A stretch of DNA of 64,000 bases. It comes from Nitriliruptoraceae bacterium. Lineage in GTDB: Bacteria > Actinomycetota > Nitriliruptoria > Nitriliruptorales > Nitriliruptoraceae. The translations under genes and the position numbers were made by a program. Below are positions 1,813-28,909 of the stretch, one piece after another (position 1 is the first letter of the stretch; each line of letters starts with the position of its first letter). The notes beneath the pieces are model-generated. The model was not told where the DNA came from, made no database searches, and was given only the letters and a program-made list of their open reading frames with translations. The stretch covers positions 1,397 to 65,396 of the forward strand of contig JAWLFE010000007.1 in the NCBI GenBank assembly GCA_041685735.1. The letters run 5' to 3'.

Positions 1813-4800
1813 TCAGGACGGTTCGTCGTCGGGTTCGCTCTCGTCGGGCTCTGCGTCCTCGGGACCGTCGTCGGATGCGTCGCCATCCAGATCCTCGGCC
1901 TGGTCCTCCTCCACTTCCTCGCCGGCATCGCTGCCACTGAAGGAGCCCTGACTGCTGGCCGAGCTGTCCGGGTCGTCTCCATCGGATGACGACCCGGATG
2001 ACTCGGAGCCGTCGACCTGGCCGTCTTGCGTGCCATCCGACGTGCCGTCGGACGTGCCATCGGTGATCGGGCCTTCCGACGTGTCGCCGGTCGTGCCGTC
2101 AGCCGGATCACCGTCCGTGGCATCCGACGTGCTGTCAACCGAGTCCACATCGTCGCCGCCGGCGCTCCCCGGGTCCGGGCTGTCCTCGTTGTCGCTGCCA
2201 CCCTCACCGTCCGTGCCACTCCCGCCGTCCGTGCCACCCTCGCTGTCCGTGCCACCCTTGCCGTCGGTGCCACCCTCGCCGTCGGTGCCACCCTCAGCTC
2301 CGTCAGCGTCCTGCCCATCGGCCTCCTGACCGTCGAGGTCTTCGGGGTCACCCTTCTGCGTGTTCGCCTCAAGGCCTTCCTCGTCGTCCTCGCTTGGCAA
2401 TGCCGTCAGCGACACCGTGGTGCTGAAGGACTCCGCGTCGTCGGCCGGCACCTCGATCGAGGTGTCCTCGTAGCCATCGGCGAGGACCTCCCAGGTGCCC
2501 GGCTCGACGCTGCTGAAGGTGTAGACGTTGCTGTCGGGCGGTGACACCGGGGGGCCCAGCATGAGCGGGTCCTTGCTCAGGCGCACGTCCGCGTCGGTGA
2601 CCGGTTCGCCGTCGGAGGTCAGGGTGAGCTCGACCTCCTTGGTGAGCACACCGATGCCGCCGAGATCCACCTCGACCAGGGTGGTGCCACCCGGGGCCAC
2701 GTCGAGGTTGCCGCGCACGATCGCGTCCTGGCCATCCGGGACGATGTCGAGGGTGAAGCGGTTCTGCGGGAGCGAGTTGCCGTCGCCGGGAACCAGGTCC
2801 TCGAACTCGATGACGGCGGTGCCATCCCCACCGAGTTGGACGGCCCGGTCGATCCGGCCGTCGGCGTTCAGGGTCGGGAACGGGGTCTGCTCGGACAGCG
2901 ACACCGCGACGTTCTGGCCGGGCTCGCCGCCGGTGATGCTGAGGTCGATCTGTCCGAGAGCGGTCGGCAGGGTCTGGTTGAGCGCGAGCTCGACGGTGGT
3001 GTCACCGCTGAGCGCGATGTAGCGGGTGACCGGCTGCGCGTCGTAGCCGGGCGGCGGCGCGAACGTGACCGCCCAGGTCTGGCGGTTGTCCAACCCTGCG
3101 AGGGTGTAGCGACCTTCATCGTCGGTGGTCGCCGTGACCGTGCCGACGCCACTGACCGCGGTGATGGACGCGCCTTCGACCCCGGCACCCGACTCGCCAA
3201 CGACCTGTCCACTGACATCGACGGTCGTGGTTGGGAGCACGATCTCCAATTCGTTGCGCGGTGACTCCGGGCTGTCCTTGTGGATCTCGAAGGCGTCGTC
3301 GACAAGCGCGGTCTCGCCGTCACGCGTCGCGGTGATACGCCAGGTCCCCGAGCGCGCACGCAAGCGGTAGTTGGTTCCGTCCTCCTCAGCGGTCGTGCTC
3401 CGCGTCCAGAAGGACTCACCCTCACGATCGGCCTGGACACGGACCCCTTCGAGGTACACGGCTTCCGATCCTCGATACTCGACGACTCGACCCCAGAGAA
3501 CCGAGTTCTGGTCGAGCGAAATGTCGACCGTTCGCGTCGGATCGCCAACCCCTAGGGTCTCGGTCTCGACGCCGAACGCAGTGGAACTGTCTAGGTCCGG
3601 CTGATCAGCTTGGATATCCCAGGTGCCCGGCGCCAACGCCAGGACGACCGGTCCGCTGCTGGTGGTCGACCCTGAGGTGGTGTAGACAGGGTCGCTTGGC
3701 GGTGCCGGCTCGGTGCCGTCCCAGGTCGTCGTGACCTCGAACTCGGTGATCGTCGCCCCATCCGTGTCACTAGCCGTGACCTCGACCGTGATCGGGGTGG
3801 CGATCAGTGTCGTCGTGCCGAGGGCGTTGTCGCCGGTGTAGCCATCAACCTGCACGATCGTGTCGGGGTCGTACTCGCCCGCGTCGACGGTGATCGTCGT
3901 GTCCACACCCGGCGGGATGAACGCCGACCAGGTCCCATCGGTGGTGTCGACGGTCGGCCTCGACACGGGGTCGCCGCCCTGGGTGATGGTCACCGTCGCG
4001 TCCGCGGGCGGGTCGTTCCCGGTGGCGCCGGCGTAGTCCGACACCTGGACGGTCCCGCTGACCTGGGCGTAGCGCGTCAGGGTGAGTGTCTCGGCCACCT
4101 GGCCCGAGCCTGAGGAGACGGTGAGGGACTGACCCGTCTCGTCGACGTGCGGTGGATCCAGGACCGTCGCCTCGGACGTCGTCAGGGTCCAGGTATCCGG
4201 GGTCAGGGTCAGGGTCGCCTCGCCGGTGGATCCCGTGATCCCGTCGACCGTCTCCGTATCGGGCTCAGTACCGCGGGTCGCGGTCACCGTGACGCCGTCC
4301 AACGGCCCGCCACCGTCCGATGAGGTGACCGATACGACGACGTCCCGATCGGTGGGGGTCAGGGTCACGTCCTCGGTCCGCGCACCGGTGACCAAGGAGC
4401 CATCGACGTTGCGGTCCGCGGGCTCGTGATCGGTCGCCGACCAGGCCAGGTCCGTCGCCACCAGTTCCGGTGCGCCGACCTGCCAGGTGCCGTCCACCGC
4501 CGTGGTGGTGACGCCGTTGGCGCCCTGAGTGACCGCCACCTCGGCACCACCCAGCGGTAGGTCGTCGGCGCCCGAGAGGACCGTTCCGTTGATCTCGGCG
4601 AAGGCGGCGATGGGATCAGCAGGTTCGAATGCATCTGAACCCGCGGGAACGTTGAGAGCCACACCCGCGAAGTCGACGTGCGGCAACGTCAGGGTTCCAC
4701 CATCGAGCGACGACAGGGTCCAGCCACCCGGCGCCAACGCATCGTCGCCGACGAAGCGCGCCACCGCGTCGCCATCGACGATCTCGACAACCGACACGGT

Positions 4801-7800
4801 CCGGTTCGGAGTGCCGTCGCGGTCGGCCTCGATCTGGAGACCCACGAGCTCAGCCGCCCCGACCACGGAGGTCAACGTCAGCACGACATCACGGGGTTCA
4901 CCGAAGAGTTCGACCGTGAAGGCCTCGTCGATGGAGCCACCGGTGTAGGTGTTCTTGTCGATCTCCACCTCGCCGTCGGCGAAACCGTCGAGCACGAAGT
5001 TGATGAGGACCTCACGGTTGCCCTGCGTGGGAACGTCGTTGGGCAGCCAGACCTGCCACGCTCCACCGGCGACCGTTGTCTCTGGATCGATGAGGACCGG
5101 GCCATCGACCAGCACCCCATCCGGGTCGCTGACGCTCACCTGGACACCATCCAGCAGATTGTCGGACCCATCCACCACGGTGCCGGATGCGCCGAAGTAC
5201 GGCTCGAGCGTGATCGTGGCCGTGAGGGTCGCGCCATCGTTCAGCGGGACCGTCAGCGCCTCCGCACCGGGGTCAAGGTGCGGACGGACCGGGAAGTCCA
5301 GCGTCGCCGCGTCCGGAACTGTGAACTCCCACGCTCCGGGGGCCAAGCTGAACGTTGCGATCCCGCCGCTCGTCGCGGCCGTGACCGGGCCCGGACCTGG
5401 CGGGGTCTCCGGGCCGTCGTACGTGGCAACCACATCCACGCCATCGAGGTCGGTCGGGGAGATCGTGGTGACCGCCGAGCTCAGCGACACCTCGACGTCG
5501 ACCTCTTCGGCGGTCAAGGTCCGATTGACGGTCGCATCCGCATTGGGCAACAGGATGAGCGCACCATGGGACTCCGTGACGTAGCCGTCGAGCGAGAACT
5601 CGATGGTGTAGGTCTCGGTCTCGTCGGGTTCGACATCGGAGAAGCTGTAGGTGCCGCCACCGGCCGTGGTCGTCTCGAGTGGAACTCCATCCGGGGACGT
5701 CAAGATGACCTTGACACCATCCTGCGGCGACGCAGCGCCACCGTCGAAGTCGCGGGTCGAGACCGTGCCGGAGACCGTTGCCGGCTCGAACGACAGTGCC
5801 ACGTCCAGCTGCCGCGCCTCACCGGGAGCCAGGGTGATGATCTGGGACTCGGAGGCGAACCGGCGATCGTCGGCGTTGACGTCGTGGAAGAACGTCAACT
5901 CGTACTCGCCGGGGACCAGATCGGCGATGGCGTAGGAACCGGCGTCCGTTCCGTCACCAGGATCCGTGGTCGTCGTGGTGAGAGGGGTGAACCCCGCATC
6001 CTGTGTTCGGTCGATGCTGACGGTGATCTCGGTGCCTCCAGGGCCGTACATGACCTCGCCGTTCGGCCCGGACACCAGGCCGGCCACGGAGGCCGGCTCA
6101 GCCTGCAGGGTCGAGGTTCCGACGTCGGTCTCGGTATTCAGCCCGAAGGTCAGTTCCTGATCGGTGATCAGCGACTCATGGTCCAGGGACTCGAACAGCA
6201 GCTCATACCGATCGCCGACCGCCGCCACCGCCGTGCAGGTCAGCCCGCCGAACCCGTCGGGCACACATTCCTGTCCCGTCAGCGGTCCGTCGCGCGGCGG
6301 GACCTCGAAGGTCGACGGGAAGACGAACTCGCCAGGCGCCCCGCCCGGCTCCGCGACAACCGGCTGTCCGTCGGGTTCGATGACGATCGGGTCACCGTTG
6401 GCATCCCGGACGGCATCGATCAGCGTGACCGTGACCTCGCCGGTGGCCACGTCCAGTGGATCGGCGTCGTCGTTGTAGTTGATGATGCCGTTGACCGACC
6501 CGGTCACCTCACCGTAGGCATCCACAACCAGGGGGTCGACCAGCCGGTAGCCGACGGTCCCACCGTCGGTGCCGCCGAGCAGTTCCAGGTTGGTGGAGGT
6601 TGCCGTCAGGAACCCGGCCTGCTCCACGCGGAGCCGATGCAGGTAGGCGGGGAGGTCGCCGAAGAAGGAGGACGTGAACTCGCCCAGGTCCACCTCGACG
6701 AAGGTGACGAGCCCATCGCTGCACCCCGGCCCCCCGGTCGTGTCCGTGGGGACGTCACAGGTCGTGAGCGTGGCGATATCCGCGAACTGCGGCGCGGCGA
6801 AGATCGGGAACGGAGCACGCTGCAGCGTCACCTCGACACCGGACCGTGGCCCCGTTGAGTTCCCCGCAGCATCGCGGCCGAGCACCTGTCCGCGAACCAC
6901 GCCCGTCCGATCGACCTGCGTATCGGGCGCGGCGATCGTGAAGTCAGGGTCGGCGGCCGGCGGCACGGTGATCGACACGGTGCGGTCGACGATCCGGTTG
7001 AAGTCGTCCGTGTACGCGGCCTGGTCGAAATCGCCCTCGATCGAGAGCTCGAAGGCACCGGGCGTGACCGGATCCGGGAAACTGAACGACCCGTCGCTAC
7101 CAGGGGTGACCTCCTGAGGCGTGACGCCCACCCCGTCCAGCGTGACCGACAACCCGGTGAAGATGTCGGCGTTGGCGGTGACATCCAGGTCCTGCATGAA
7201 GGCTGGGATGTTCGCGTCCGCGATCGCTGGATCGAGGGTGATCGTCCCGCTCACGTTGCGTGGCAGGGCGGTCATCTCCACCTCCTCGATGATCAGCGGG
7301 CGGTTGCCGTCCGCGTCCTCCTCCGGGGTCTCGAGCTCGAAGGAGGCCTCGTCGTCCGGGGGCAGTTCCACGGGCTCGAAGCCGGGCGCGTAGATCTCAT
7401 AGCGGATCGGGCCTGGGCGGAAGAACGGGGGGATCGTGAAGTCACCGGTGGGCGTCGCGCCATCGCTGGCAAGCCAGAGGTCATCCTCCGGCTGGGTGGT
7501 CAGGTCTCCGGTGAACACCGTCGAGCGCACGACCCGTGGATCACCGACGAGGTTGCCGTCCTCGTCACGCCAGCCGAAGTCGAAGTCGCCCAGGACGGCA
7601 CAACCCGACCCAGGACAGGTGGTGGAGGTCGGGCGGAAGAACGGCGCCTGCTCGAGCTGCTCGAAGACCGAGGTGCCACGGACGCGCAGGAGCGCCCCCG
7701 GCACCGGGGTGTCGGCCTCGACCTCGTTCGCCGACCGGTAGCGCAACTCGAAGGTGACCTCCTCCGGGTTGGGTTGGAGGATGGCGTTGATGGTCCGGGT

Positions 7801-10800
7801 GTCGTTGAACTGCAGGCCGGCGATCGACTCGAAGCCCTCGGGCTGTCCGGGGCCGCGGGTGAACGTGCCGACGTTGGTGGAGATGACCAGTCGCCACTCG
7901 AACTGCGTCTCGCCCACGTCGGCGGGGATCCGATCGATCCGGTACTGCCCCCGAGCGAGCGTCGATCCCTGGTCGTCGTTGCCGCTGAGGCGAGGTGTCG
8001 GAGCGCCCTCGGGGAGCGGAAGGACGTTGCCGTCCTCGTCCACCCGTTCGAAGGTGATATCGGAACGCTCGACATCGATCGCGTCCAGGCCTTCATCGAT
8101 CGATGACGGTGCGCGCACGTTGCCCTGGACGATCGCGTACCGGCGCAGGTTGGGGTCCAGGCGGGTGGTGGAGCCGGAGTCGATGTCGACGCGGCGAACC
8201 AAGCGCTCGTGGTCCAACGGGACCGTGGTCGCACGGAAGCGCGTGTCGTCGGCGCGGTCCTCCTGGTTGGTGGGGGTCACCAGGACGAAGTTGCCGGTGC
8301 CGAAGGAACGGGTGAACTCGACATCGCCGACGGCGTCGGTCGACGCACACAGACCGTCGAGGGTCCAGTCCTGCCCGTCCAGCTCGAACGACCGCGTGCA
8401 GGCCGAAACGTCCTCGTCCAGCTCCTCCACGCGGGGCGGCGTCCGGCCGTCAGGTTCGTAGACGAACGGGTCGGGGACGACGAACACCTCAGCATCGCCC
8501 ACGACGGCGGACTGGCCCCCGGTGATCCGCAGCGCCAGGCTGCCGAGTGCCGTGATGTCGATGATGCCGGCGTCGGAGACGTCCTGAGCGGAGACGCGGA
8601 CAACCTCGGTGCGCATGTCGTAGCCGGGCGCATCGATCCGGACGGTGGCCGCGCCGGCGCGCAGCCCCGAGATGAGAAAGGCGCCCTCGGCAAGGGTCTC
8701 CGTGACGGCGTCCGGCTGGCCGTCGACGGTGATCACGGTTCCAGCTGGCGGGTCGAAGGGCTCCGATGGGTCGGCGGCGTCCCGGATCACGGCCTGGATG
8801 CGCCCGGCATCGTCCGGGACCGCGGCGGTCAGGCGCATCTGGATCGTGTCCTCGTCGGCCACCTGTGCCAGGGAGGCGGCATCCGCGTCCGGGTCGTCGG
8901 GTGGTGGCGCGGCGGCGGCATCGCCGGGCAGGGTGAGGATGTCGCCGGGTTCGGTGGCAACCTCGTAGAACTGGGAGACGTACCCGAAGCGCTCGAAGCG
9001 GACGAGGTACTCCCCGCCAGGCACACCGGAGAGCTGGAAGCTGCCATCACCGGTCGCCGAGGTGGTCCGCAGCGTCGTGTCCTCGCCGACGAGGGTGACA
9101 CCGACCCCGCCACAGGGCGCCAGCACGGCACCGCTGCGTTGCTCCGGGAACTCGGGGTCCGGGTACCGACAGCCGCCGCCCGGCGCGACCTCCTGGGTCA
9201 CCACACCCTGGACCACGGCCGTCGAGGGCCGCAGGTCGCTGACGTCGACCCGCACGTCGCCGCGGTCGACCACGACCTCCGCGGTCTGGGTCAGCCAGCC
9301 CGGAGCGGAGAAGGTCAGCTGGTAGGTGCCGAAGGTCAGGGCGGGGAAGTCGAAGGTCCCCGCCAGTTCACCCTCGGTGAGGGTCGTCGTCTCGCGTTCG
9401 GTCGGGTTGCCCTCCAGCGCGACCCGAACCCCTCCGACGCCCTCCCCGCGGTGGGTGACCCGTCCTCGGATCGTGCCGAGACCACCTTCGAGTTGGGCGT
9501 CGACCCCCGTGAGCTGCTGCCCACCGTCGAGGTCGACCGACAGGGTCGCCGTGGCGAAGCCGCGCTGCCGCACGATGACCTCGTAGGTCTGCGGCGTGGC
9601 GATCCCGGAAACCGACCAGCTGCCGACGTTGCCCTCGGTCGCCGAGGTGGCGCTGTAGATGAGATCGCCGTCGGTGATCGTGATGTCCGCTCCACCGATC
9701 GGGCTGCCACCTGTGGTGGTGACCGACCCGGACATGCTGCCGGCGGCCGGGTCGAGGAGCAGCTCGACGTCGACCTCGGGTTCCTCCTCGGACGTCGTCA
9801 CGACCCGACTCGCGACCTCGAACCCGGGCCGGGTGGCCGTGACCCGGTAGAAGGCGGGAGCGATCAGCCCATCGGCGAACCGGAAGGTCCCACGATCGTC
9901 GGTGGTCGTCTCGATCCGGTCGATCACCTGCCCGAGTGGCAGCCGGACCGAGGTCAGGGCCGCCAACCGGGTCTGGCCGTCGCCGTTCTGCGGGTCGGTG
10001 GTGCCCGCGTCCCCGAACGCGACACGCTCGATCACCACGGAGGTCCCCTCCGGGTCGGCGGGACCATCGACCGTGCCCTGCACGATGGCGTCGGTCTCGA
10101 AGCCGACACCCCGCGCGCCGATGCGATCACGCTGATCGTCACCGAAGTCGGGGGCCACCAGGAACTTGGCGAGCGGGATGTCGTCGGCGTTCATGTGCGT
10201 CGTGATCGCCACGACCGCGGATGCCCAGAGCGCCAGGACCATCACGAAGGCGACGACCTTGAGGAACAACGGCGACAGCACGGGTTGCTGCGTGAAGGAG
10301 GCGGCGGCCGTGACCGGTGCACCGTCGCTGCGCACGGAGATCAGAGCACCGTGCCGGATCTCGCGGAACCAGGACCGTCGGGTGCGCTCCACCCGGGTCG
10401 GGACCGGCAGGTCCTGGCCGGGATCGAGGGTGATCTCGTCGACGTAGAAGCTGACCTCGATGCCTTCCCCGGCACCATCGAGGCGGACGTGGATCGGGTC
10501 GGACGAGCGGTTGTGCAGGATCGTCTGCAGCTTGGCCGAACGGCGTCCCCGACTGGTCGGCGGGGTGACCTCGACGGCAACGTCCGGGCGATCGCCGACC
10601 TGCATGGTGGCGGTGACCGCCGCCTGTCGATGTGATCCGTCGGGGTCTGTGACCGTGAACCCGATGCGGCGCTCGCCGGCGTTGGCCTCGAGCGGGACCC
10701 GGATGCGCACCACCGCGGTGGCGACCTGGCCGGGGTCGAGTACGACCAGCTCGTCGGGCAGGGTGATCTGTTGGGGATCGAACCCGCTGATCGTCAACGT

Positions 10801-10902
10801 CGGCGCCAGGTCCAGGTCGCCGTCGTTGGCGATCGTGACCTCGAACTCGGCGTCCTCCCCGGGGGCGACGGCCGTGAGCTTCGGCGTGAGCGACAACTTC
10901 AC
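1813..10902 (-). CDS. Giant (about 3029 aa) single-pass membrane protein. It has two cytoplasmic Ig-like modules, one TM helix, a very long external array of carboxypeptidase-regulatory-like/Ig-like beta-sandwich repeats and an acidic C-terminal tail. Third of three CisA-like paralogues
   Basis: The listed ORF runs 1813..11319, but its first 139 codons overlap the upstream gene and are Arg/Ser/Pro-rich. A GTG at 10902 has GGAG 7 nt upstream and starts VKLSLTPKLTAVAPGEDAEFEVTIANDG. TM helix is LFLKVVAFVMVLALWASAVVAITT. Repeats are of the type G.V.G.V...G.P..GA.V......T.TD..G.F.F..L.PG.Y.V......GF. Paired Cys residues suggest an extracytoplasmic location. Confidence 0.85.
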   Translation of the reverse strand: MKLSLTPKLTAVAPGEDAEFEVTIANDGDLDLAPTLTISGFDPQQITLPDELVVLDPGQVATAVVRIRVPLEANAGERRIGFTVTDPDGSHRQAAVTATMQVGDRPDVAVEVTPPTSRGRRSAKLQTILHNRSSDPIHVRLDGAGEGIEVSFYVDEITLDPGQDLPVPTRVERTRRSWFREIRHGALISVRSDGAPVTAAASFTQQPVLSPLFLKVVAFVMVLALWASAVVAITTHMNADDIPLAKFLVAPDFGDDQRDRIGARGVGFETDAIVQGTVDGPADPEGTSVVIERVAFGDAGTTDPQNGDGQTRLAALTSVRLPLGQVIDRIETTTDDRGTFRFADGLIAPAFYRVTATRPGFEVASRVVTTSEEEPEVDVELLLDPAAGSMSGSVTTTGGSPIGGADITITDGDLIYSATSATEGNVGSWSVSGIATPQTYEVIVRQRGFATATLSVDLDGGQQLTGVDAQLEGGLGTIRGRVTHRGEGVGGVRVALEGNPTERETTTLTEGELAGTFDFPALTFGTYQLTFSAPGWLTQTAEVVVDRGDVRVDVSDLRPSTAVVQGVVTQEVAPGGGCRYPDPEFPEQRSGAVLAPCGGVGVTLVGEDTTLRTTSATGDGSFQLSGVPGGEYLVRFERFGYVSQFYEVATEPGDILTLPGDAAAAPPPDDPDADAASLAQVADEDTIQMRLTAAVPDDAGRIQAVIRDAADPSEPFDPPAGTVITVDGQPDAVTETLAEGAFLISGLRAGAATVRIDAPGYDMRTEVVRVSAQDVSDAGIIDITALGSLALRITGGQSAVVGDAEVFVVPDPFVYEPDGRTPPRVEELDEDVSACTRSFELDGQDWTLDGLCASTDAVGDVEFTRSFGTGNFVLVTPTNQEDRADDTRFRATTVPLDHERLVRRVDIDSGSTTRLDPNLRRYAIVQGNVRAPSSIDEGLDAIDVERSDITFERVDEDGNVLPLPEGAPTPRLSGNDDQGSTLARGQYRIDRIPADVGETQFEWRLVISTNVGTFTRGPGQPEGFESIAGLQFNDTRTINAILQPNPEEVTFELRYRSANEVEADTPVPGALLRVRGTSVFEQLEQAPFFRPTSTTCPGSGCAVLGDFDFGWRDEDGNLVGDPRVVRSTVFTGDLTTQPEDDLWLASDGATPTGDFTIPPFFRPGPIRYEIYAPGFEPVELPPDDEASFELETPEEDADGNRPLIIEEVEMTALPRNVSGTITLDPAIADANIPAFMQDLDVTANADIFTGLSVTLDGVGVTPQEVTPGSDGSFSFPDPVTPGAFELSIEGDFDQAAYTDDFNRIVDRTVSITVPPAADPDFTIAAPDTQVDRTGVVRGQVLGRDAAGNSTGPRSGVEVTLQRAPFPIFAAPQFADIATLTTCDVPTDTTGGPGCSDGLVTFVEVDLGEFTSSFFGDLPAYLHRLRVEQAGFLTATSTNLELLGGTDGGTVGYRLVDPLVVDAYGEVTGSVNGIINYNDDADPLDVATGEVTVTLIDAVRDANGDPIVIEPDGQPVVAEPGGAPGEFVFPSTFEVPPRDGPLTGQECVPDGFGGLTCTAVAAVGDRYELLFESLDHESLITDQELTFGLNTETDVGTSTLQAEPASVAGLVSGPNGEVMYGPGGTEITVSIDRTQDAGFTPLTTTTTDPGDGTDAGSYAIADLVPGEYELTFFHDVNADDRRFASESQIITLAPGEARQLDVALSFEPATVSGTVSTRDFDGGAASPQDGVKVILTSPDGVPLETTTAGGGTYSFSDVEPDETETYTIEFSLDGYVTESHGALILLPNADATVNRTLTAEEVDVEVSLSSAVTTISPTDLDGVDVVATYDGPETPPGPGPVTAATSGGIATFSLAPGAWEFTVPDAATLDFPVRPHLDPGAEALTVPLNDGATLTATITLEPYFGASGTVVDGSDNLLDGVQVSVSDPDGVLVDGPVLIDPETTVAGGAWQVWLPNDVPTQGNREVLINFVLDGFADGEVEIDKNTYTGGSIDEAFTVELFGEPRDVVLTLTSVVGAAELVGLQIEADRDGTPNRTVSVVEIVDGDAVARFVGDDALAPGGWTLSSLDGGTLTLPHVDFAGVALNVPAGSDAFEPADPIAAFAEINGTVLSGADDLPLGGAEVAVTQGANGVTTTAVDGTWQVGAPELVATDLAWSATDHEPADRNVDGSLVTGARTEDVTLTPTDRDVVVSVTSSDGGGPLDGVTVTATRGTEPDTETVDGITGSTGEATLTLTPDTWTLTTSEATVLDPPHVDETGQSLTVSSGSGQVAETLTLTRYAQVSGTVQVSDYAGATGNDPPADATVTITQGGDPVSRPTVDTTDGTWSAFIPPGVDTTITVDAGEYDPDTIVQVDGYTGDNALGTTTLIATPITVEVTASDTDGATITEFEVTTTWDGTEPAPPSDPVYTTSGSTTSSGPVVLALAPGTWDIQADQPDLDSSTAFGVETETLGVGDPTRTVDISLDQNSVLWGRVVEYRGSEAVYLEGVRVQADREGESFWTRSTTAEEDGTNYRLRARSGTWRITATRDGETALVDDAFEIHKDSPESPRNELEIVLPTTTVDVSGQVVGESGAGVEGASITAVSGVGTVTATTDDEGRYTLAGLDNRQTWAVTFAPPPGYDAQPVTRYIALSGDTTVELALNQTLPTALGQIDLSITGGEPGQNVAVSLSEQTPFPTLNADGRIDRAVQLGGDGTAVIEFEDLVPGDGNSLPQNRFTLDIVPDGQDAIVRGNLDVAPGGTTLVEVDLGGIGVLTKEVELTLTSDGEPVTDADVRLSKDPLMLGPPVSPPDSNVYTFSSVEPGTWEVLADGYEDTSIEVPADDAESFSTTVSLTALPSEDDEEGLEANTQKGDPEDLDGQEADGQDADGAEGGTDGEGGTDGKGGTDSEGGTDGGSGTDGEGGSDNEDSPDPGSAGGDDVDSVDSTSDATDGDPADGTTGDTSEGPITDGTSDGTSDGTQDGQVDGSESSGSSSDGDDPDSSASSQGSFSGSDAGEEVEEDQAEDLDGDASDDGPEDAEPDESEPDDEPS
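2197..2304 (-). repeat. Six tandem 18-bp in-frame repeats encoding (GGTDGE)-like units within the acidic tail of the giant protein
   Basis: Plus-strand units gccaccctcNccgtcNgt begin at 2197, 2215, 2233, 2251, 2269 and 2287. Translation: GGTDGEGGTDGKGGTDSEGGTDGGSGTDGEGGSD. Confidence 0.8.
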
Positions 10903-10948
10903 GGGCGGACTCCACGAGGGCTGGTCGGACGCTTGAGGTATCGGCAGG

Positions 10949-13426
10949 TCACAGCTCGACCTCGAGGTCGACGGTCTCGCCGGCACGCAGGAACAGGGTC
11001 TGGGAGGTGACGACCGGTCCCCCGGCGGGCACCTGGAACTCGACGATGTAGCTCTGGGGGGCATCCAACCCGACGATGTCGAAGGTCCCACCGGGCGCGG
11101 TGACGGTCTGGGCAGCGACCTCGTTGGGGTACCCATCGAGGGTGTAGACCACGACCCCGACGCCGGCCTCGGGCACACCGTCACGGACCACCTGGCCGGA
11201 GATACCGGCCTGGGCCTCCAACTCGATCGTCTCGAGCTCGAGTTCCTGCCCCGCCTGCAGATCGACGAGCAGCGTCTGGGGCCGTGAACCCGCCCGGGCG
11301 TAGGTGATGGTGTAGGCACCCGGCGGCAGGTCGTCGAACCGGTAGGCGCCCGGCGGCTGATCGCTGCTGCGGGTCACCCGTTCGACCGACGCGCTCTCCA
11401 GGGTGATGTCGACTCCACCGATCGGGCTGCCGGACGGATCGACCACGATCCCGCGGACCGACGCGTTGGCCGAGGCCAGCACCGCGTTGACGTCCGTGCG
11501 GTTGGCCTGCGCCCCGTCCTGCAGTTCGACCGACAGGGCCTGGGTCGCACGTCCCTCCTGGCTGAAGGTGACGGTGTAGGTGCCCGGGACCGGCAGGCCG
11601 GTGGCCAGCCAGCTGCCCACATCCCCCTCGCTGATCGACACCGTGGTGAACTCCTCCTCGGCGCCGTCGATGATGATGTCGACCCCGCCGAGCGGGGTGC
11701 CGTCGGGTGCCGTGACCCGGCCCGACAGGCTGCCGTTGTCGGAAGTCATCACCACGGAGACGTCATCGACCTGCTGCTGTTCGTCGAGGTTGAGCGTGAC
11801 AGACTCCGGGAAGAAGCCCTCCCGCGTGACCGACAGCGTGTAGGTCCCCGGGGTCGGCAGGCCACGCAGTTCGAAGATCCCGGTGTCATCCGCGCCGCTG
11901 AGGGTCCGCGTGACGAAGTCGGACGACCCGTCCGTGGCGGCGATATCGACGTTGGGCAGCGGGTTCCCTGCGGTATCGACCACCGATCCGGCGATCCGGC
12001 CGTCGCCGGTGCGCAGCAGGACCTCGATGCCGTCGCGCTGTTCGCCGGGTCGCAGGCTGACGGTCCGACGCTCGGTGGCGAACCCCTCCTTGGCGATGAG
12101 GATCTCGTAGGTCGAGGGCGTGGCGAGGTCGGTGAGGACGAACTCGCCGGTCGCATCGACCTCGAGCGAGGTGACGATGGCGGGGGTCGGCTCCAACTCG
12201 GAGCCCTCGATCGATCCGCCCGGGATCTCGGCGGCGACGACCGCACCCTCGACGTCCGCACCGATGACGCGTCCACTGACCGATCCCGGGCGCCCGGCCA
12301 GGGCGATGTCGAGGTCGATCAGGTCCGTATCGGGACCCAGTTCGATGACGTCCCCGTCGTTGAACGTCTCCCCGTCGGGGAACCAGACCTCGTCGAACCC
12401 GGCCACCTCGACGCGCAGGTAGTACTCGCCCTCGTCGAGGGTCCCGAACCGGTAGGCGCCGGTCGAGCCGGTCACGGTCGCGTGCGTCGGGACCACGGGG
12501 TTGGAGGTGTCGAACAGTTGCACGGCGGCACCGTCGATGGGGCCCCCGGTGGTCGAGCTGACCTGCCCGCTGACGCTGGACGGGGCGGCGCGGGGGCCGA
12601 TCGGGCGGTCCTCGCCGAGGCCCTGCTTGAGCAGTTGCTCGTTGGCTGCGGTCCGGTCGGCGACGTTGCCGAAGCTCAGCATGATGACGAACGCGAACAG
12701 CGTTGCGACGAAGAGCAAACCGAGCAGCGAGAGCACCGTGCGGCTGATCCGTGGCTTCTGGATCAGGACGAGCGGGACCATGACCGATGCCGCGCCACCG
12801 GTCGCCGTGATGGTCATCGGTCGGACGACCGGCATGCCGAACCAGGGACGCTTCCCGAGCGCCAGGACGTCCACCAGGGCCTGTTCGCCGGGCAGGATCT
12901 CGGTGGCCGGGGGCTCGAAGGTGACCTCGACCTTGCGCTCAGGTTCGTCGGCCACGAGCTTCGGCGTGAGCGTCGTGTTGCCGGTGTTGGCGATGTCGAG
13001 GACGAACCCCCCGGCTTTCCCGACGGTCTGCGAGTTCGGCTCTGCGGTCATCTGCAGACCGTCGCGGGCGGCCACCACCAGGTCGAAGCCGACCATCACG
13101 GTCGCGCCGTCCGCGAGGCCGGGTTCGCTGACCTCGATGGCCACCCGGCGGCGACCGGAGGGGAAGGTGTCCGGGAGCGCCAGCGACACGGTGACGGCCC
13201 GCCGCTCGCCCGGGAACAGGTCCAGGGACGTGTGGTCGACCGACACCCACTGCGCATCGAGGCCGAGGACCTCGACGGTGAAGGACCGGATCACCTCGTC
13301 GACGTTGGTGACCTCGACGGGGACCGTGGCGGCCTCGCCCAGACCGACGTGGACCTCGGGCGTACCGACATCGGCGCGGACCCGGTCGTCCCCACCGCTG
13401 ACCCGTCGTCCGGGCATCCCGGTCAC
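10949..13426 (-). CDS. Single-pass membrane protein (825 aa) with two cytoplasmic Ig-like modules, one TM helix and about 6 carboxypeptidase-regulatory-like repeats. Second CisA-like paralogue
   Basis: The GTG start overlaps the upstream stop (GTGA at 13423-13426); an alternative ATG lies at 13417. Motifs: VGLGEAATVPVEVTNVD, GGFVLDIANTGNTTL, GKRPWFG, QKPRISRTVLSLLGLLFVATLFAFVIMLSFG (TM). These are followed by repeats such as VSGQVSSTTGGPIDGAAVQLF...TGSTGAYRFGTLDEGEYYLRVEVAGF. Confidence 0.85.
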   Translation of the reverse strand: MTGMPGRRVSGGDDRVRADVGTPEVHVGLGEAATVPVEVTNVDEVIRSFTVEVLGLDAQWVSVDHTSLDLFPGERRAVTVSLALPDTFPSGRRRVAIEVSEPGLADGATVMVGFDLVVAARDGLQMTAEPNSQTVGKAGGFVLDIANTGNTTLTPKLVADEPERKVEVTFEPPATEILPGEQALVDVLALGKRPWFGMPVVRPMTITATGGAASVMVPLVLIQKPRISRTVLSLLGLLFVATLFAFVIMLSFGNVADRTAANEQLLKQGLGEDRPIGPRAAPSSVSGQVSSTTGGPIDGAAVQLFDTSNPVVPTHATVTGSTGAYRFGTLDEGEYYLRVEVAGFDEVWFPDGETFNDGDVIELGPDTDLIDLDIALAGRPGSVSGRVIGADVEGAVVAAEIPGGSIEGSELEPTPAIVTSLEVDATGEFVLTDLATPSTYEILIAKEGFATERRTVSLRPGEQRDGIEVLLRTGDGRIAGSVVDTAGNPLPNVDIAATDGSSDFVTRTLSGADDTGIFELRGLPTPGTYTLSVTREGFFPESVTLNLDEQQQVDDVSVVMTSDNGSLSGRVTAPDGTPLGGVDIIIDGAEEEFTTVSISEGDVGSWLATGLPVPGTYTVTFSQEGRATQALSVELQDGAQANRTDVNAVLASANASVRGIVVDPSGSPIGGVDITLESASVERVTRSSDQPPGAYRFDDLPPGAYTITYARAGSRPQTLLVDLQAGQELELETIELEAQAGISGQVVRDGVPEAGVGVVVYTLDGYPNEVAAQTVTAPGGTFDIVGLDAPQSYIVEFQVPAGGPVVTSQTLFLRAGETVDLEVEL

Positions 13427-15630
13427 GAGGTGTCCACACGCAGGGTGACATCTACGGTCTGCGCCGGGCCGAGGGTCTCCAGCACCGTCATCGTGCTGCC
13501 GTTCTCGGTCGTCACCGTGACGGTGTAGCTCCCGGGCGCCAGGTCGCCGATGCTGAACCGTCCCTGTTGGGCCGCCGGCGCCGATGCGCTGGTCGTCTGC
13601 CGGACGGTCGATCCGTCGGAGACCTCGACCTCGGCGCCGGCGATCGGCTCGCCGGTCGCCGCATCGAGGACCTGCCCCGTGATGCGACCGACCGATGAGG
13701 TGAGCACCGCGTTCGCGGTCGCCTCCGGGGTATCGGCTCCCAGACTGACCTGGACGGTCTCGCGCGCGAAGCCATCGATATCGAAGCTGACGCTGTAGAC
13801 CCCCGGCAACGGCAGCCCCGTGAGCCGGAAGCTGCCGACCGCGCCACTGGTCAACGTGTCGGTCGACAGGGTCTGCCCACCGCCCGACACGGTGACGGTC
13901 ACGCCACCGAGGGGGCTACCGTCGGAACTCGAGGCCTGCCCGGTGATCACGCCGGTGGCATCCGACAGCACCACCGTGAGCCCGGAGACCGACTCGCCCG
14001 GACCGAGCTGCACGCCCTGGGTCTCACTGGCGAACCCGTCCAACTCGAACGTCAGGAGGTAGGTGCCCGGGGTCTCGAGGTCGTTGAAGGCGAAGGTGCC
14101 AACCTCGCCGCTGGTGGGCGTGGTCGTGCCGGCTTCCACGTCACCGTCGCGGGCGGTGACCTCCACCCCGCCGAGCGGCGTGCCGTTGCGATCGGTGACC
14201 GTTCCGGAGATCGCCCCGGCGGCAGCCGGGAGCCGGGTGGCGTTGAGCGCGACCTGTTCCCCGGCCGCGAGTTCCTGGGTGACCTCGACGGGAGCGAACC
14301 CGGCCGCGGTGTAGGTGATGCGGTAGGTGGCGGGGGCCGTGAGTCCCTCGGCACTCCAGAGACCGGCCTCGTCAGCGCTGAGCAGGATCGGGGGTTCTTC
14401 CTCCAGCAGGTCGATCGCGGTGACCTGGACATCGATGGCGGCCGGCGCCCCGTCCCCGGCCACCGCCTGCCCACCGATACCGCCGGGCAGACCGGTCAGC
14501 ACGGACGCTTCCGCCTCGGTCTCACCGGTGGCCGCGACGACCAGCTCACCTGCGGTCGCCGCCGTCGGGGCACCGGGCCACCACTGCTCCTCGAAGCCGG
14601 GGGCGCGCAGGCGCAGGCGGTAGCGCGCGGGGAGGAGGGCCGCGAGTTCGTAGCTGCCGTCGTCGTCGGTCGCGGTCGCGGTCACGAGCTGCCCGCGGGC
14701 GTCGAAGGCCTCCACGGTGACACGTTCGACGGGCTGACCGGTGCTGGCGGCGGTCACGGTGCCGGCAACCGTCCCGCCGACCGCCGCGGGATCCAGGTCC
14801 TCCAGGCCGTTGCCCTGCATGAAGGTCTCCGGGACCGACTTGGTCGGGTCCGCAGGTGCCAGGGCGGCCTGGACCCCGAACAGCATGGCCAGGGTCCACA
14901 ACAGCACGATCAGCGCGAGCGTCAGCAGGGTGATGATGCCGGCGGTCAGGCGCGGCTTCTGACGGAACCGGACCTCGGTGGTCTCCTCGAGCCCGTCCCC
15001 CTCCGCCTCGATCGTGATGGTGTGCTCGACCGGCGAGCCGACCCACGGCCGCTTGCCGTGCGCGATGAGCAGGACGTAGGCGGTCTGGTCGACCCGGAGA
15101 TCGACCTGGCGGTCGCTCAGGGACAGGTCGAGGACCCGGTTGCCATCACGCGCCTGCAGCAGCAGGTCGAGTTCGGTGTTGCCCGTGTTCTCGACGAGGA
15201 GCTCGAAGCCACCCCGTTTCCCACTGGTGCGGATCGGTGGCTCGGCACGCAGGTCGACCTGGGAGTTCCGGGGCACCTCGACGGTCAGCGAGCGCTCGGC
15301 CGGAACCGATGCGCCGGACCTTCCCGCCACGACCAGCAGACCTTCATGGGTCCCCGCCGGCAGGGTGGGGTGGAACCGGAGGTCGAGGGCCACCCGGATC
15401 GTCTCCTCCGGGAACAGCGTCAGCTCGGTCGGGGTCTGCACGATCTCCTCGGCCATCAGACCGAGCAGGCGGACGTCGATCTGTTCGATGACCGCGCTGG
15501 TGTTGTGGATCTCGAGCGTCACCGAGACGGGCTCGCCCACCGTCACCTGCACGGTGGGCGTCAGCAGCTCGACCCGCAGCTGCGGGCGCTGCAGGGCCTC
15601 TTCGAGCTCGAAGTCGCTCATGTCACTCAT
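13423..15630 (-). CDS. Single-pass membrane protein (735 aa) with two cytoplasmic Ig-like modules, one TM helix and about 5 carboxypeptidase-regulatory-like repeats. First CisA-like paralogue
   Basis: The ATG at 15630 overlaps the DUF4255 gene's stop by 8 nt. Motifs: VTVGEPVSVTLEIHNTS, GGFELLVENTGNTEL, GKRPWVG, QKPRLTAGIITLLTLALIVLLWTLAMLFGV (TM). These are followed by repeats such as VAGTVTAASTGQPVERVTVEAFD...TDDDGSYELAALLPARYRLRLRAPGF. Confidence 0.85.
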   Translation of the reverse strand: MSDMSDFELEEALQRPQLRVELLTPTVQVTVGEPVSVTLEIHNTSAVIEQIDVRLLGLMAEEIVQTPTELTLFPEETIRVALDLRFHPTLPAGTHEGLLVVAGRSGASVPAERSLTVEVPRNSQVDLRAEPPIRTSGKRGGFELLVENTGNTELDLLLQARDGNRVLDLSLSDRQVDLRVDQTAYVLLIAHGKRPWVGSPVEHTITIEAEGDGLEETTEVRFRQKPRLTAGIITLLTLALIVLLWTLAMLFGVQAALAPADPTKSVPETFMQGNGLEDLDPAAVGGTVAGTVTAASTGQPVERVTVEAFDARGQLVTATATDDDGSYELAALLPARYRLRLRAPGFEEQWWPGAPTAATAGELVVAATGETEAEASVLTGLPGGIGGQAVAGDGAPAAIDVQVTAIDLLEEEPPILLSADEAGLWSAEGLTAPATYRITYTAAGFAPVEVTQELAAGEQVALNATRLPAAAGAISGTVTDRNGTPLGGVEVTARDGDVEAGTTTPTSGEVGTFAFNDLETPGTYLLTFELDGFASETQGVQLGPGESVSGLTVVLSDATGVITGQASSSDGSPLGGVTVTVSGGGQTLSTDTLTSGAVGSFRLTGLPLPGVYSVSFDIDGFARETVQVSLGADTPEATANAVLTSSVGRITGQVLDAATGEPIAGAEVEVSDGSTVRQTTSASAPAAQQGRFSIGDLAPGSYTVTVTTENGSTMTVLETLGPAQTVDVTLRVDTS

Positions 15631-16375
15631 CGGCGGCGTTCTCGGCCCGCGCGGGGGGCTCCACGGTGACCTCGTCGTCCGGGTCGGCTTCGACCGAGTA
15701 CCGCCCGGAGTCCTGGATGATCGCCGAGCCCCTGCGACCGATCACCCGTCCGCCGGCTGCGGAGGCGTCGGTGCGTCCGAACCGACGGCGGCGGCGGGAC
15801 CGCGCCGCGGGCTCACGGGCATCGCTGGTGTACAGCTGCATCGAGGTGGGTGGATCGTTGGCCATGACCGGGACCGGCAGGCCCGTGGGGGTGTAGATCA
15901 ACATCTGGACCGCGGGCCGTGGCGGCACGGACAGGGCCGACCACAGCTGGGTCGCGGAGGTCGTCTCATCCGGCGCGAGCGAGAGGCTCGGCGCGGGCTT
16001 GGCCGCCCGCAGCGCATCGCTCAGGAACTCGACGGGGATGGCGCGGCTGGCTGCGAGCAGGTTCATGACCCGTCCCAGCAGGTCGTGTTCGACACCGGAC
16101 CCGCCACCCCACACGCTGATGAGGTAGCGCGCCTCCACGACCGGCATCACGGGCTCACGTGCCAGGCCCCCGTCCTGTTCGATCAGCTTGCTGCCCGTCG
16201 AGGCGCGATCCTTCGAGGGCGTCAACGAGTACAGGAACAGGTTGAGCAGGGGTGTCGAACGGCGCGACTCCCAATCCCGTTCCGGCGGGTCGAACGAGAT
16301 CTCCGCGACGCTCGCGGGCAGCGGCACCGCAGCACGGAGCCACTTCTCGAGGCAGCGGTCGAGTTCGTCGATCAT
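15623..16375 (-). CDS. DUF4255 (Pvc16/Afp16 N-terminal domain) protein, the likely CIS tail terminator/cap
   Basis: I trimmed the listed ORF to the ATG at 16375, which lies 2 nt after the upstream stop. The sequence MIDELDRCLEKWL...ISFDPPERDWESRRSTPLLNLFLYSLTPSKDRAS...ARYLISVWG matches the DUF4255 pattern as I know it. Confidence 0.75.
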   Translation of the reverse strand: MIDELDRCLEKWLRAAVPLPASVAEISFDPPERDWESRRSTPLLNLFLYSLTPSKDRASTGSKLIEQDGGLAREPVMPVVEARYLISVWGGGSGVEHDLLGRVMNLLAASRAIPVEFLSDALRAAKPAPSLSLAPDETTSATQLWSALSVPPRPAVQMLIYTPTGLPVPVMANDPPTSMQLYTSDAREPAARSRRRRRFGRTDASAAGGRVIGRRGSAIIQDSGRYSVEADPDDEVTVEPPARAENAADE

Positions 16376-16377
16376 CG

Positions 16378-17097
16378 TCAGAGGCCGGCGAAGATCGACA
16401 GCAGCCACAGCGTCCCGGCGATAGCGAGCGCCGCTCCGGCCAGACCGGCAGCGACCACGAACGGCCACGTCACGCTCGGGACCACGTGGGGCATCGGGAC
16501 GGGCATCGGGACCTCGACCTTGACCGGCTCGGGTTCGGGAGGAACCGGCTTGGGCAAGGTGGCCGCGCAGCGCAGGCACGAGGTGATCCCGGGGTCGTTC
16601 ATCTCACCGCAGTGCCAGCACGCCGACGCGCCCAACGCCTGACGACCGCCGGTACCCGGCAGTCGCCGGCGGGCACGGCGCTGCCCGTTGGCGCCGTCAT
16701 CCGACGGGGGTGCCGCCCAGAACACCGGGTAGTCGCACCGTGGGCAGAACCAGGCCGCCGTCGGCCGGGGCGAGGAGTCGCCGACGAGCACCAGCCCGCA
16801 TCCCGGGCACTCGACCTCCACCTCGCTGTCGGTACCGGGGACTCCGGCGCCCCTCCCGTTCGAGGGTGTCTCAGCACGGCCCGGTGGCGGGGGCGCGACC
16901 TGGGGCGTCGGCGCATCGGGCCCGTCACCGACGTTGACCGCGTCGCCGGAGCGATGGTCGTGGGTCTGGGACGCGTCGGCGGTGTCGGAGGTCTCCGCAC
17001 CCGCGACCGGCTGACCCGCCTGCTCGATGCGGTCGGCTTCGGCCTGTGATCCGGGGGTCGGCGGCAGGTTCGCTGGTGGCGCGGGCCGGTCGGTCAT
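16378..17097 (-). CDS. Tail-anchored membrane protein with two zinc-ribbon motifs
   Basis: ATGA overlap with the upstream gene. Motifs are CPGCG...CPRCDYP and CWHCG...CLRCAATLP. A Pro-rich linker leads to a C-terminal TM helix, WPFVVAAGLAGAALAIAGTLWLLSIFAGL, that ends the protein. Confidence 0.7.
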   Translation of the reverse strand: MTDRPAPPANLPPTPGSQAEADRIEQAGQPVAGAETSDTADASQTHDHRSGDAVNVGDGPDAPTPQVAPPPPGRAETPSNGRGAGVPGTDSEVEVECPGCGLVLVGDSSPRPTAAWFCPRCDYPVFWAAPPSDDGANGQRRARRRLPGTGGRQALGASACWHCGEMNDPGITSCLRCAATLPKPVPPEPEPVKVEVPMPVPMPHVVPSVTWPFVVAAGLAGAALAIAGTLWLLSIFAGL

Positions 17098-17648
17098 GCG
17101 ACGTCCTTCTGCGGGTCGGCGATGGTCAGCGACACCCCGAGGTGGGCCGGGACCTCGTCACGGACGAGGTCGGCCAGTTCATGTTCACGCAGGTGCCCCG
17201 TCGAGGACACGACGACCTCGACCACCCAGGTCGACGGATCGGGCTCCGGCGCGTCGGGTCCGACCACGGCGCCCGGGTCGGTGACGGTGACGGGCCCGTC
17301 GGTGATCGCCTCGAGCAGCATGCGCAGTCCGGCGGCGGTTCCTCGCCACGGCAGTGCACGTCCGAGGGCGGCCACGATCTGGCGTTGGTGCTCGGTCGGC
17401 AGGTGCTCATCGAGCACGTCGTACCCGAGCCAGCGCCCGAGGTAGGCCAACATGGCCGGGGTCGTGACGGTCGGGTCGGCGATGCGCTCGATCCCGTCGG
17501 CGCTCGCGCGCAGGGTCCCACCCAGCCGTTCGAAGATGGTGGTGAACCGGACGAGCAGATCGTCGTCCCGCATGCCGACGGGCAGTTGACCCACGAGCCA
17601 GCCCGGTGGGTACTCGGGTGGCGAGGAGACGCGGTCGGTCACGCTCAT
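17094..17648 (-). CDS. Phage tail protein I (P2 gpI)-like baseplate component, in the position of Afp12/Cis12
   Basis: I trimmed the listed ORF to the ATG at 17648, which forms an ATGA overlap with the baseplate J stop. The sequence LVGQLPVGMRDDDLLVRFTTIFERLGGTLRASADGIERIADPTVTTPAMLAYLGRWLG...RALPWRGTAAGL follows the gpI family pattern. Confidence 0.7.
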   Translation of the reverse strand: MSVTDRVSSPPEYPPGWLVGQLPVGMRDDDLLVRFTTIFERLGGTLRASADGIERIADPTVTTPAMLAYLGRWLGYDVLDEHLPTEHQRQIVAALGRALPWRGTAAGLRMLLEAITDGPVTVTDPGAVVGPDAPEPDPSTWVVEVVVSSTGHLREHELADLVRDEVPAHLGVSLTIADPQKDVA

Positions 17649-20007: not shown

Positions 20008-20019
20008 CGTCGGTACCCC

Positions 20020-22508: not shown

Positions 22509-22510
22509 CG

Positions 22511-23490: not shown

Positions 23491-23520
23491 CGGTGCACAC
23501 CTCCTGGCGGGTCAAGGTCG

Positions 23521-23613
23521 TCGGGGTCGGGGTCGGGGGTCGGGTCGGGTCGGGGTCGGGGGTCGGGTCGGGTCGGGGTCGGGGGTCGGGTCGGGGTCGG
23601 GGGTCGGGTCGGG
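23521..23613. repeat. G-tract tandem repeat with unit tcgggg-tcggggg-tcggg-tcggg (23 nt, about 4 copies). It fills the intergenic gap between the DUF6760-like ORF and the second tube gene
   Basis: Read directly from the sequence. On the plus strand there are 16 consecutive G-runs of 3-5 nt, each separated by TC. The plus strand is the template strand for this operon, so the mRNA carries (GACCC)-type C-tracts. The array begins right after the TGA at 23614-23616. Confidence 0.9.
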
Positions 23614-24344: not shown

Positions 24345-24421
24345 CTGGCCCTCCTGCGTTCGTCGTCGGTCGTCGAGTGGTCGGTTCGCGATCGGTGCGG
24401 GGCACCCTCAGGCATGCAGCA

Positions 24422-24453: not shown

Positions 24454-24475
24454 CGAACCTCCGTAGGTCGTGCTC

Positions 24476-25042: not shown

Positions 25043-25051
25043 GCGATCCGA

Positions 25052-28885: not shown

Positions 28886-28909
28886 ACCGCCCGCGGTCGG
28901 TCGCGGTCG

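Follow-up and report, generated by a model that had tools for sequence, protein, structure and literature searches.

How the cytoplasmic contractile injection systems (CIS) of Gram-positive bacteria meet the membrane, and what triggers their firing, are open questions, and so far studies of accessory factors have been limited to CisA and Sco4256-4258. A CIS operon that bears on these questions lies in the stretch of DNA analyzed here, a 64,000-nucleotide (nt) segment of a Nitriliruptoraceae bacterium (assembly GCA_041685735.1, contig JAWLFE010000007.1, positions 1,397 to 65,396; hereafter the window) with a GC content of ~70%. The operon lies on the minus strand and runs from an AAA+ ATPase gene at one end to a giant gene at the distal end, where three consecutive genes, g1, g2 and g3, encode predicted membrane proteins of 735, 825 and 3029 amino acids (aa). 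An earlier note on this DNA had taken the trio for CisA-like membrane adaptors, triplicated and in one copy enormously expanded. Our analysis confirms the observation on the three genes, and sequence comparison assigns them, through a strong but indirect link, to the Sco4256/4257/4258 family of CIS-associated proteins rather than to CisA. As judged from gene order and sequence in related loci, the trio is an ancient three-gene cassette arranged as cis16, position 1, position 2 and position-3 giant, whose products are most likely CIS-binding envelope proteins oriented N-in/C-out.

Three Paralogous Membrane Proteins Share One Architecture

The coordinates and lengths of the three genes are as first described (Table 1), and their paralogy is borne out: g1 and g2 share 34% identity across 215 aa of their N-regions (BLAST E 1e-28), and a family hidden Markov model (HMM) built without window sequences matches all three proteins (E 1e-67 for g1, 3e-74 for g2 and 8e-59 for g3), including g3, whose N-region match is weak by BLAST (26% over 76 aa). 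Each protein starts with an N-terminal tandem immunoglobulin (Ig)-like module of ~215 residues, followed by one strongly hydrophobic helix; no N-terminal signal peptide is predicted in g1, g2 or g3, so that the single transmembrane (TM) helix and the absent signal peptide are confirmed by prediction in all three. In the AlphaFold2 model of g1 residues 1-260 (pLDDT, the predicted local distance difference test score, 85.9) two beta-sandwiches precede a long helix, and its Foldseek neighbours comprise the FAP47/hydin-type ASH domains of 7SQC, the SPD-2 domain of CEP192 and 2QSV, as well as RbmA, protein 4.2 and transglutaminase 2. The two N-terminal Ig modules of the earlier note thus stand, but not their assignment to the CARDB type, since the fold search returns PapD/ASH-like domains. 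Similarly, the GKRPW(V/F)G motif is confined to g1 and g2, with TRRSWF as the g3 counterpart, and the QKPR-type basic stop-transfer sequence holds for g1 and g2 but not for g3, which reads QQPV.

Beyond the helix, arrays of carboxypeptidase-regulatory-like modules are confirmed both by the CarboxypepD_reg model (PF13620; E 8e-55, 3e-61 and 2e-67 for g1, g2 and g3) and by iterated HMM searches, which delineate five modules in g1, six in g2 and at least 16 in g3. Pfam NOMO1-like domains are also matched, and the top solved-structure match of the g1 ectodomain in the PDB is NOMO2 (E 1.4e-4), which supports the reading of the ectodomains as beads-on-a-string rods. Cysteines are absent from g1 and g2 and begin only at residue 578 in g3. 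Scans with Pfam and further models found no toxin or enzyme domain in the trio and no lectin, ricin or toxin-like C-terminal domain, only CarboxypepD_reg-type modules, and a viral fold library gave generic Ig-like matches only.

The long external part, paired cysteines and acidic tail ascribed to the giant are all present: its ectodomain combines the CarboxypepD_reg-like modules with several beta-rich stretches that have no module assignment, its 10 cysteines occur as five close pairs, and it ends in a 199-aa tail with a net charge of -66, to which DNA tandem repeats are confined. AlphaFold2 modelling of residues 760-1250, a region that lacks Pfam matches and has Cys pairs inside, gave a pLDDT of 37, and a sequence search of residues 760-1608 against the PDB found nothing. 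Because g3 orthologues span 2053 to 3227 aa and GC at third codon positions is uniform along the gene (0.82-0.90, except in the last 29-codon block), the intactness of the 9-kb open reading frame (ORF) is supported.

The Trio Belongs to the Sco4256/4257/4258 Family

Sco4256, Sco4257 and Sco4258 are paralogues which, according to published descriptions, resemble one another at the N-terminus, contain one TM helix and vary at the C-terminus (PMC10066040; PMC10020575). Vladimirov 2023 recognises three domains in them, of which domain 1 is similar to pilus chaperones, domain 2 is the TM segment and domain 3 varies, and reports for Sco4256 domain 1 (residues ~2-215) HHpred matches to RbmA, PapD-like chaperones, 2QSV, CEP192, protein 4.2, transglutaminase and FAP47, with the TM segment at 219-250 (PMC10020575). 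Sco4256 copurifies with CIS particles, and deletion of sco4256-4258 mimics a CIS deletion (PMC10066040; PMC10020575).

The window proteins reproduce this plan. A ~215-aa tandem PapD-like Ig fold extends from the N-terminus, the published HHpred list and the Foldseek neighbours of the g1 model almost coincide, and the single TM helix comes right after domain 1 (229-252, 231-253 and 212-234 in g1, g2 and g3 versus the published 219-250). Furthermore, in five Streptomycetaceae CIS clusters, which were fetched from plasmids via the sheath protein and then scanned, the family HMM picks exactly one gene per cluster, with E values of the order of 1e-36 to 1e-46: a 'hydrolytic protein' in L007 (Streptomyces sp. 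NBC_01324; 4e-39), a 'RICIN domain-containing protein' beside cis15/cis16 in L016 (4e-46), a 'hydrolase' in L015 (2e-45), an ORF of S. cattleya pSCAT (2e-39) and a Kitasatospora protein (2e-36); tblastn of the g1 N-domain against plasmids gave no match. 'Hydrolytic protein' is also the legacy name of SCO4256. The Streptomycetaceae members have the same N-module and TM position, followed by a Gly/Pro-rich linker and a small C-terminal domain. By operon content and by sheath identity (45-51% between the window and Streptomycetaceae), the window cluster is type IId-like and holds three copies of the family, as in S. coelicolor. A lectin, ricin or toxin-like C-terminal domain, which the trio lacks, occurs in only about a third of the published Sco4256-family homologues, and this part of the family is treated as variable in the published descriptions.

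The Cassette Is Old and Found in CIS Clusters

An exhaustive profile search returned 422 family representatives (50% identity clusters) at E <=1e-30 and 4429 at E <=1e-10. In most top matches, which are 700-900 aa long, the module starts at residue 1 and the TM helix lies near 210-245; a few giants reach 3050 and 3227 aa, and CarboxypepD_reg arrays are present in the representatives scanned. Co-occurrence with CIS genes, a check that the earlier note had proposed, held throughout, all 11 related genomic contexts lying inside CIS clusters. In nine of the 11 loci the first family gene is immediately preceded by a Pvc16_N gene, and in L012 and L013 a weak cis16 match is found a few hundred bases upstream of g1. 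A complete small/medium/giant series is present in eight of the 11, for example 733/823/3050, 727/910/2053, 724/893/at least 2895, 1000/850/at least 2512, 750/920/at least 2282 and 774/890/3038 aa. Two Egicoccus metagenome-assembled genomes (MAGs) show full synteny with the window; a narrow N-domain alignment search of genome contigs gave three MAG loci, from Egicoccus and Nitriliruptoraceae, and overall the cassette with its giant occurs in MAGs of Nitriliruptoria and Acidimicrobiales as well as in unclassified metagenome contigs.

In a neighbour-joining tree of N-modules from the related loci, the sequences fall into three clades by gene position, with the Streptomycetaceae proteins as a fourth clade; among the best 149 representatives, 57 are position-1-like, 73 position-2-like, five position-3-like and 14 other. 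The conservation of the cassette and the three orthologous N-domain clades indicate that triplication and giant are old and maintained rather than peculiar to this genome, and the idea of a local triplication and expansion has to be given up. The occurrence of three orthologous types in fixed order also suggests three non-redundant subunits. Tandem Sco4256 homologues in Ilumatobacter and Roseiflexus, which may correspond to the cassette genes, have been tabulated by Vladimirov (PMC10020575).

In one related locus (L011, ENA contig_51349, 10001-13732), positions 1 and 2 form a single ORF of 1243 aa that contains two N-modules and two TM helices. The family genes downstream of it are in pieces of 199-697 aa, and an assembly frameshift is the likelier cause. 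We rejected this fusion as evidence of a g1-g2 interaction, given the fragmented neighbours and a second Ig module that would fall outside the cell.

Topology and a Putative Cytoplasmic Handle

With no signal peptide and a single helix, a signal-anchor protein is the default reading for each member of the trio. Over 100 family representatives the net charge is +2.4 in the 15 residues before the helix and -0.3 in the 15 after it, in line with the positive-inside rule. The S. coelicolor homologue SCO4256 is a membrane O-glycoprotein, with Hex3 on Ser317 in a Gly-rich peptide C-terminal to the TM helix. Protein O-mannosylation in actinobacteria works on the outer face of the membrane, so that glycosylation of SCO4256 beyond its TM segment supports experimentally a C-out orientation in the family, and by analogy with this homologue the window proteins would likewise be N-in/C-out.

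These data are consistent with a model where the three proteins would insert N-in/C-out via one signal-anchor TM helix, where the conserved cytoplasmic Ig module would be the handle that binds the CIS particle, and where the ectodomain rods would cross the wall, that of the giant extending past it; the ectodomains would then either fix the membrane site of cytoplasmic CIS action or report the state of the envelope to the CIS. The Ig module is the likely handle because it is the only part common to the whole family, and the published data on Sco4256-4258 offer the analogy for its binding to the CIS. Arrays of five or six modules could span the wall of a Gram-positive cell, and the giant would extend far past it; the recurrent adjacency of the family genes to the cap gene provides a lead to a candidate CIS contact. 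Overall, bitopic Sco4256-family membrane proteins, with a cytoplasmic Ig handle binding the CIS and wall-spanning ectodomains, are the best explanation of the locus and, in our judgement, a reasonably probable one. The coupling of an outside part to an inside machine, as imagined in the earlier note, accordingly stays plausible from the shared plan and the tight genetic link to the CIS, but loses its basis in CisA.

Several points weigh against this explanation. The charges flanking the membrane helix of g3 are weak; related Ig modules also repeat in signal-peptide proteins, so that the fold alone does not imply a cytoplasmic location; and the link to Sco4256-4258 runs through Streptomycetaceae plasmid homologues that match the published proteins by annotation, position and architecture. 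Finally, in the published effector view, loss of Sco4256-4258 empties the tube lumen, which fits ill with a purely membrane-anchor role and weakens the proposal.

The last point leads to the reading in which the trio would be cargo or toxin effectors that are loaded into the lumen of the tube and leave it on firing, a role proposed for Sco4256-4258. The window proteins are in the same family, Sco4256 is present in purified particles, and deletion of sco4256-4258 leaves mostly empty tubes while the proteins are toxic in E. coli (PMC10066040; PMC10020575). As luminal cargo, however, a protein of 3029 aa that has a signal-anchor helix and ~2,800 beta-sandwich residues is implausible; the scans described above found no toxin or enzyme domain; SCO4256 is glycosylated C-terminal of its TM helix, and hence membrane-inserted; and in the S. 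lividans particle the cognate cargo is reported to be the tape-measure-like protein Sle1. We consider a luminal effector role unlikely for the trio. It is more doubtful still that the three proteins act as fibres or bind receptors for a released extracellular CIS (eCIS), with the arrays as fibre shaft: their genes lie downstream of the baseplate genes, the usual place of eCIS fibres, and their ectodomains are long and repetitive, but fibres are not built with a TM helix after a folded N-terminal module, the cap gene rather than the baseplate genes adjoins the trio in most loci, and Pfam, PDB and viral fold searches gave no similarity to fibre proteins.

The Trio Differs from CisA, Whose Slot Holds a Small Zinc-Ribbon Protein

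CisA (SCO4242) is a membrane protein needed for CIS firing in S. coelicolor (Casu 2025, PMC12237407). Its 468 aa comprise a largely unstructured cytoplasmic N-terminus (residues 1-285), a TM helix and a C-terminal domain (310-468, ~150 aa) that resembles solute- or sugar-binding domains (PMC12237407), and a Cys-rich, probably zinc-binding segment of ~50 residues lies just before the TM helix (Vladimirov et al., PMC10020575). The carboxypeptidase-regulatory-like domain given for CisA in the earlier note therefore does not agree with the published domain, which is of the sugar- or solute-binding type; the word 'carboxypeptidase' is absent from the main text of the 2025 CisA paper (PMC12237407), and in the literature searched no paper joins a carboxypeptidase-regulatory-like domain with contractile injection systems.

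For comparison we used a set of CisA-like proteins picked by position and architecture, SCO4242 itself standing outside it. In Streptomycetaceae these proteins are encoded directly after cis12 (Table 1), and each combines at least one zinc ribbon with a disordered stretch and a TM helix. The Cys-rich segment is present in those of L007, L016, L015, L005 and L008, and the two that were Pfam-scanned match, in a C-terminal domain, the F5/8-type-C model PF25302 and not CarboxypepD_reg. This is the published CisA plan. A profile of the trio N-domain aligned to the CisA-like profile with an hhalign probability of 1.7%, BLAST of the trio against the CisA-like proteins gave no significant match, and the family HMM matched no CisA-like protein among all ORFs of L005, L007 and L008 or in the L015 and L016 proteins scanned directly.

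The trio lacks five of six defining features of CisA. In place of an unstructured cytoplasmic N-terminus there are the two beta-sandwiches (g1 residues 15-225), no Cys-rich zinc-ribbon-like segment of ~50 aa precedes the TM helix, CarboxypepD_reg arrays replace the ~150-aa sugar/solute-binding C-terminal domain, no sequence or profile homology is detectable, and the genes follow cis16 instead of lying directly downstream of cis11/cis12. The shared feature is a single TM helix with N-in/C-out topology, in the trio by prediction from the helix and its flanking charges. The view that the three proteins are triplicated, expanded CisA-type adaptors recruiting the CIS baseplate to the membrane can appeal to this same broad topology (cytoplasmic N-terminus, one TM helix, extracytoplasmic C-terminus) and to the place of the genes at the distal operon end, near the baseplate genes; against it stand the folded N-termini of the trio and the missing cysteines of g1 and g2, set beside the disordered N-terminus, Cys-rich motif and sugar/solute-binding domain of CisA, the failed profile and sequence comparisons, the F5/8-type-C assignment of the CisA-like proteins and the occupation of the slot after cis12 by another membrane protein. 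We give the CisA identity of the trio very little credence.

That slot holds a gene for a 239-aa protein with a disordered N-terminus, zinc ribbons at residues 97-125 and 160-181 and a TM helix at its C-terminus (212-239), where the protein ends without an extracytoplasmic domain. It is kept in the same slot in eight loci (L001, L002, L003, L009, L011, L012, L013 and L018), and its profile aligns with the membrane-proximal zinc ribbon of the CisA-like proteins at an hhalign probability of 95.6% (E 1e-8), over only 30 columns. Judged by these sequence features, the 239-aa zinc-ribbon-TM protein is a better candidate for the CisA counterpart, in a form without an outside domain.

It is likewise highly improbable that the trio are ordinary cell-surface or S-layer-like proteins merely adjoining the CIS operon, for although CarboxypepD_reg arrays are common in surface proteins and an anammox S-layer glycoprotein model gives a weak, partial match (E 3e-8, well under the model cut-off), the contexts lie in CIS clusters in 11 of 11 cases with gene order kept across distant lineages, the trio genes overlap the cap gene, and in Streptomycetaceae CIS clusters the N-module is joined to quite different C-terminal domains.

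Layout of the Operon and Neighbouring Genes

The 8-nt overlap between the cap gene and g1 (ATGAGTGA) and the 4-nt overlap between g1 and g2 (GTGA), both noted earlier, are confirmed from the sequence, and we read these genes as translationally coupled. A 46-nt spacer carrying GGAG separates g2 from g3, and the gap from the zinc-ribbon gene to the cap gene is 2 nt. The proposed starts of all three genes are consistent with orthologue N-termini; for g3, the GTG at 10902, preceded by GGAG and lying within an ORF of 1813-11319, gives an N-terminus (MKLSLTPK) that agrees with that of orthologue P0103 (MKLTTSPP). A search downstream of g3 revealed neither a terminator-like nor a sigma-70-like site.

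Table 1. Features of the CIS operon in window coordinates, with the CisA-like proteins of Streptomycetaceae loci in the coordinates of those loci
Feature	Position	Strand	Remarks
Gene 1 (g1, position-1 type)	13423..15630	-	735 aa; ATG start
g1 tandem Ig module	14956-15588	-	residues ~15-225
g1 TM helix	14875-14946	-	residues 229-252
g1 ectodomain	13426-14874	-	residues 253-735
Gene 2 (g2, position-2 type)	10949..13426	-	825 aa; GTG start
g2 tandem Ig module	12746-13384	-	residues ~15-227
g2 TM helix	12668-12736	-	residues 231-253
g2 ectodomain	10952-12667	-	
Gene 3 (g3, position-3 giant)	1813..10902	-	3029 aa; GTG start
g3 tandem Ig module	10279-10902	-	residues 1-208
g3 TM helix	10201-10269	-	residues 212-234
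g3 ectodomain	2413-10200	-	residues 235-2830
g3 acidic D/G/S/E tail	1816-2412	-	residues 2831-3029
cis16/Pvc16_N (DUF4255) cap gene	15623..16375	-	~250 aa from MIDELD start; Pvc16_N E 2.8e-20; directly upstream of g1
239-aa zinc-ribbon-TM protein	16378..17097	-	directly after cis12
Rest of CIS operon	17094..33228	-	by domain matches
cis12/Tail_P2_I	17094-17648	-	
Baseplate J	17645-19579	-	
gp25	19576-20007	-	
VgrG	20020-21843	-	
LysM tube	21843-22508	-	
Tube (gp19-type)	23002-23490	-	
Tube (gp19-type)	24476-24913	-	
Sheath	25052-26620	-	
TPR protein	28910-31123	-	
AAA+ ATPase	31120-33228	-	winged-helix N-domain (WHD)
CisA-like protein, L007	32185-33294		
CisA-like protein, L016	32717-34354		
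CisA-like protein, L015	33271-35025		
CisA-like protein, L005	33042-35030		
CisA-like protein, L008			zinc-ribbon protein

The TPR protein, encoded between the AAA+ and sheath genes, has 737 aa; a long low-complexity region is rich in Glu, Pro and Ala, the TPR repeats are C-terminal, and there is also a weak STAND-NTPase-like match. Between the TPR and sheath genes, 27105-27746 (minus strand) encodes a protein of 213 aa that has a hydrophobic segment at its N-terminus and matches the Septum_form domain (PF13845, E 1e-7). The interval between the two gp19-type tube genes (23490-24476, minus strand) contains short genes only, one 184-aa product being similar to the small protein that L007 encodes there; no DUF4157 or tape-measure-like cargo gene was seen in this interval, and the same place in Streptomycetaceae loci is taken by a ~3 kb gene for a DUF4157 or tape-measure-like (Sle1-type) protein. 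In L007, a 1065-aa protein with PD40 beta-propeller repeats and DUF11 domains (13752-16949, plus strand) is encoded directly upstream of the DUF4255 cap gene and overlaps it, another large repeat protein coupled to cis16. The sole TTA codon among 17 operon genes checked is codon 100 of the AAA+ (cis15) gene, and a tRNA-Leu gene with anticodon UAA (bldA type) lies at 39453-39539 (plus strand), ~6 kb away from the CIS operon; Vladimirov et al. have tabulated TTA codons for the eCIS clusters of Streptomyces (PMC10020575).

Implications and Comparison with Known Systems

The locus shows a Sco4256-type N-module joined to very different outside parts, and in at least two actinobacterial lineages (Nitriliruptoria and Acidimicrobiales) the N-module carries huge rod-like arrays that are too large for the tube lumen. 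These arrays and the published glycosylation of SCO4256 beyond its TM helix put the 'effector' label in question, and point to a conserved three-subunit envelope complex. We suggest tentatively, as a possibility well short of probable, that the Sco4256 family may be, instead of luminal cargo, the trans-envelope partner of cytoplasmic CIS in monoderms, a three-subunit heteromeric complex with docking Ig modules and wall-crossing rods, the longest of which, in the giant, would project past the wall; the complex would act as anchor, sensor or firing checkpoint. If so, such a complex would be a functional analogue of the membrane complex of the type VI secretion system (T6SS), and the Streptomyces 'effectors' would represent this device with short ectodomains. 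For comparison, the locus further offers a minimal CisA-like protein that has zinc ribbons and a TM helix and lacks an outside domain. As to novelty, giant-rod ectodomains and this gene order were not found in the literature searched, so that the claim of an undescribed architecture holds to that extent, but the family and its three-copy habit are published.

Among known systems, Sco4256-4258 share with the trio the ~215-aa tandem PapD-like Ig module from residue 1 without a signal peptide, the single TM helix at ~210-250, a variable C-terminal part and the presence of three paralogues within a type IId-like CIS cluster. They differ in their C-terminal part, where a linker of ~100-300 aa leads to a small domain (lectin, ricin or another), whereas the trio carries five, six and at least 16 CarboxypepD_reg modules (475 to ~2,800 aa) and no toxin-like domain, and consists of anciently diverged orthologous types in fixed order after cis16, one of them a giant of ~3,000 aa. 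CisA resembles the trio as a bitopic N-in/C-out protein encoded in a CIS cluster and proposed to link the CIS to the membrane, possibly with extracellular sensing (PMC12237407); its disordered N-terminus with zinc-ribbon motifs contrasts with the folded, Cys-free Ig modules of the trio, and its C-terminal domain, of the F5/8-C or sugar-binding type, with CarboxypepD_reg, there being no sequence or profile similarity between the two.

NOMO, of the BOS complex, is likewise a single-pass protein with a beads-on-a-string CarboxypepD_reg/Ig-like rod on the far side of a membrane, but it is a eukaryotic protein of the endoplasmic reticulum unrelated to CIS, and the resemblance is in fold and rod shape only. 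Finally, the T6SS membrane complex and the thylakoid-anchored CIS (tCIS) of cyanobacteria are, as summed up in PMC12237407, similar in concept as envelope-embedded holders of a contractile machine. These anchors attach via the baseplate, whereas the nearest gene neighbour of the trio is the cap gene, and the likeness is conceptual, with no homology seen.

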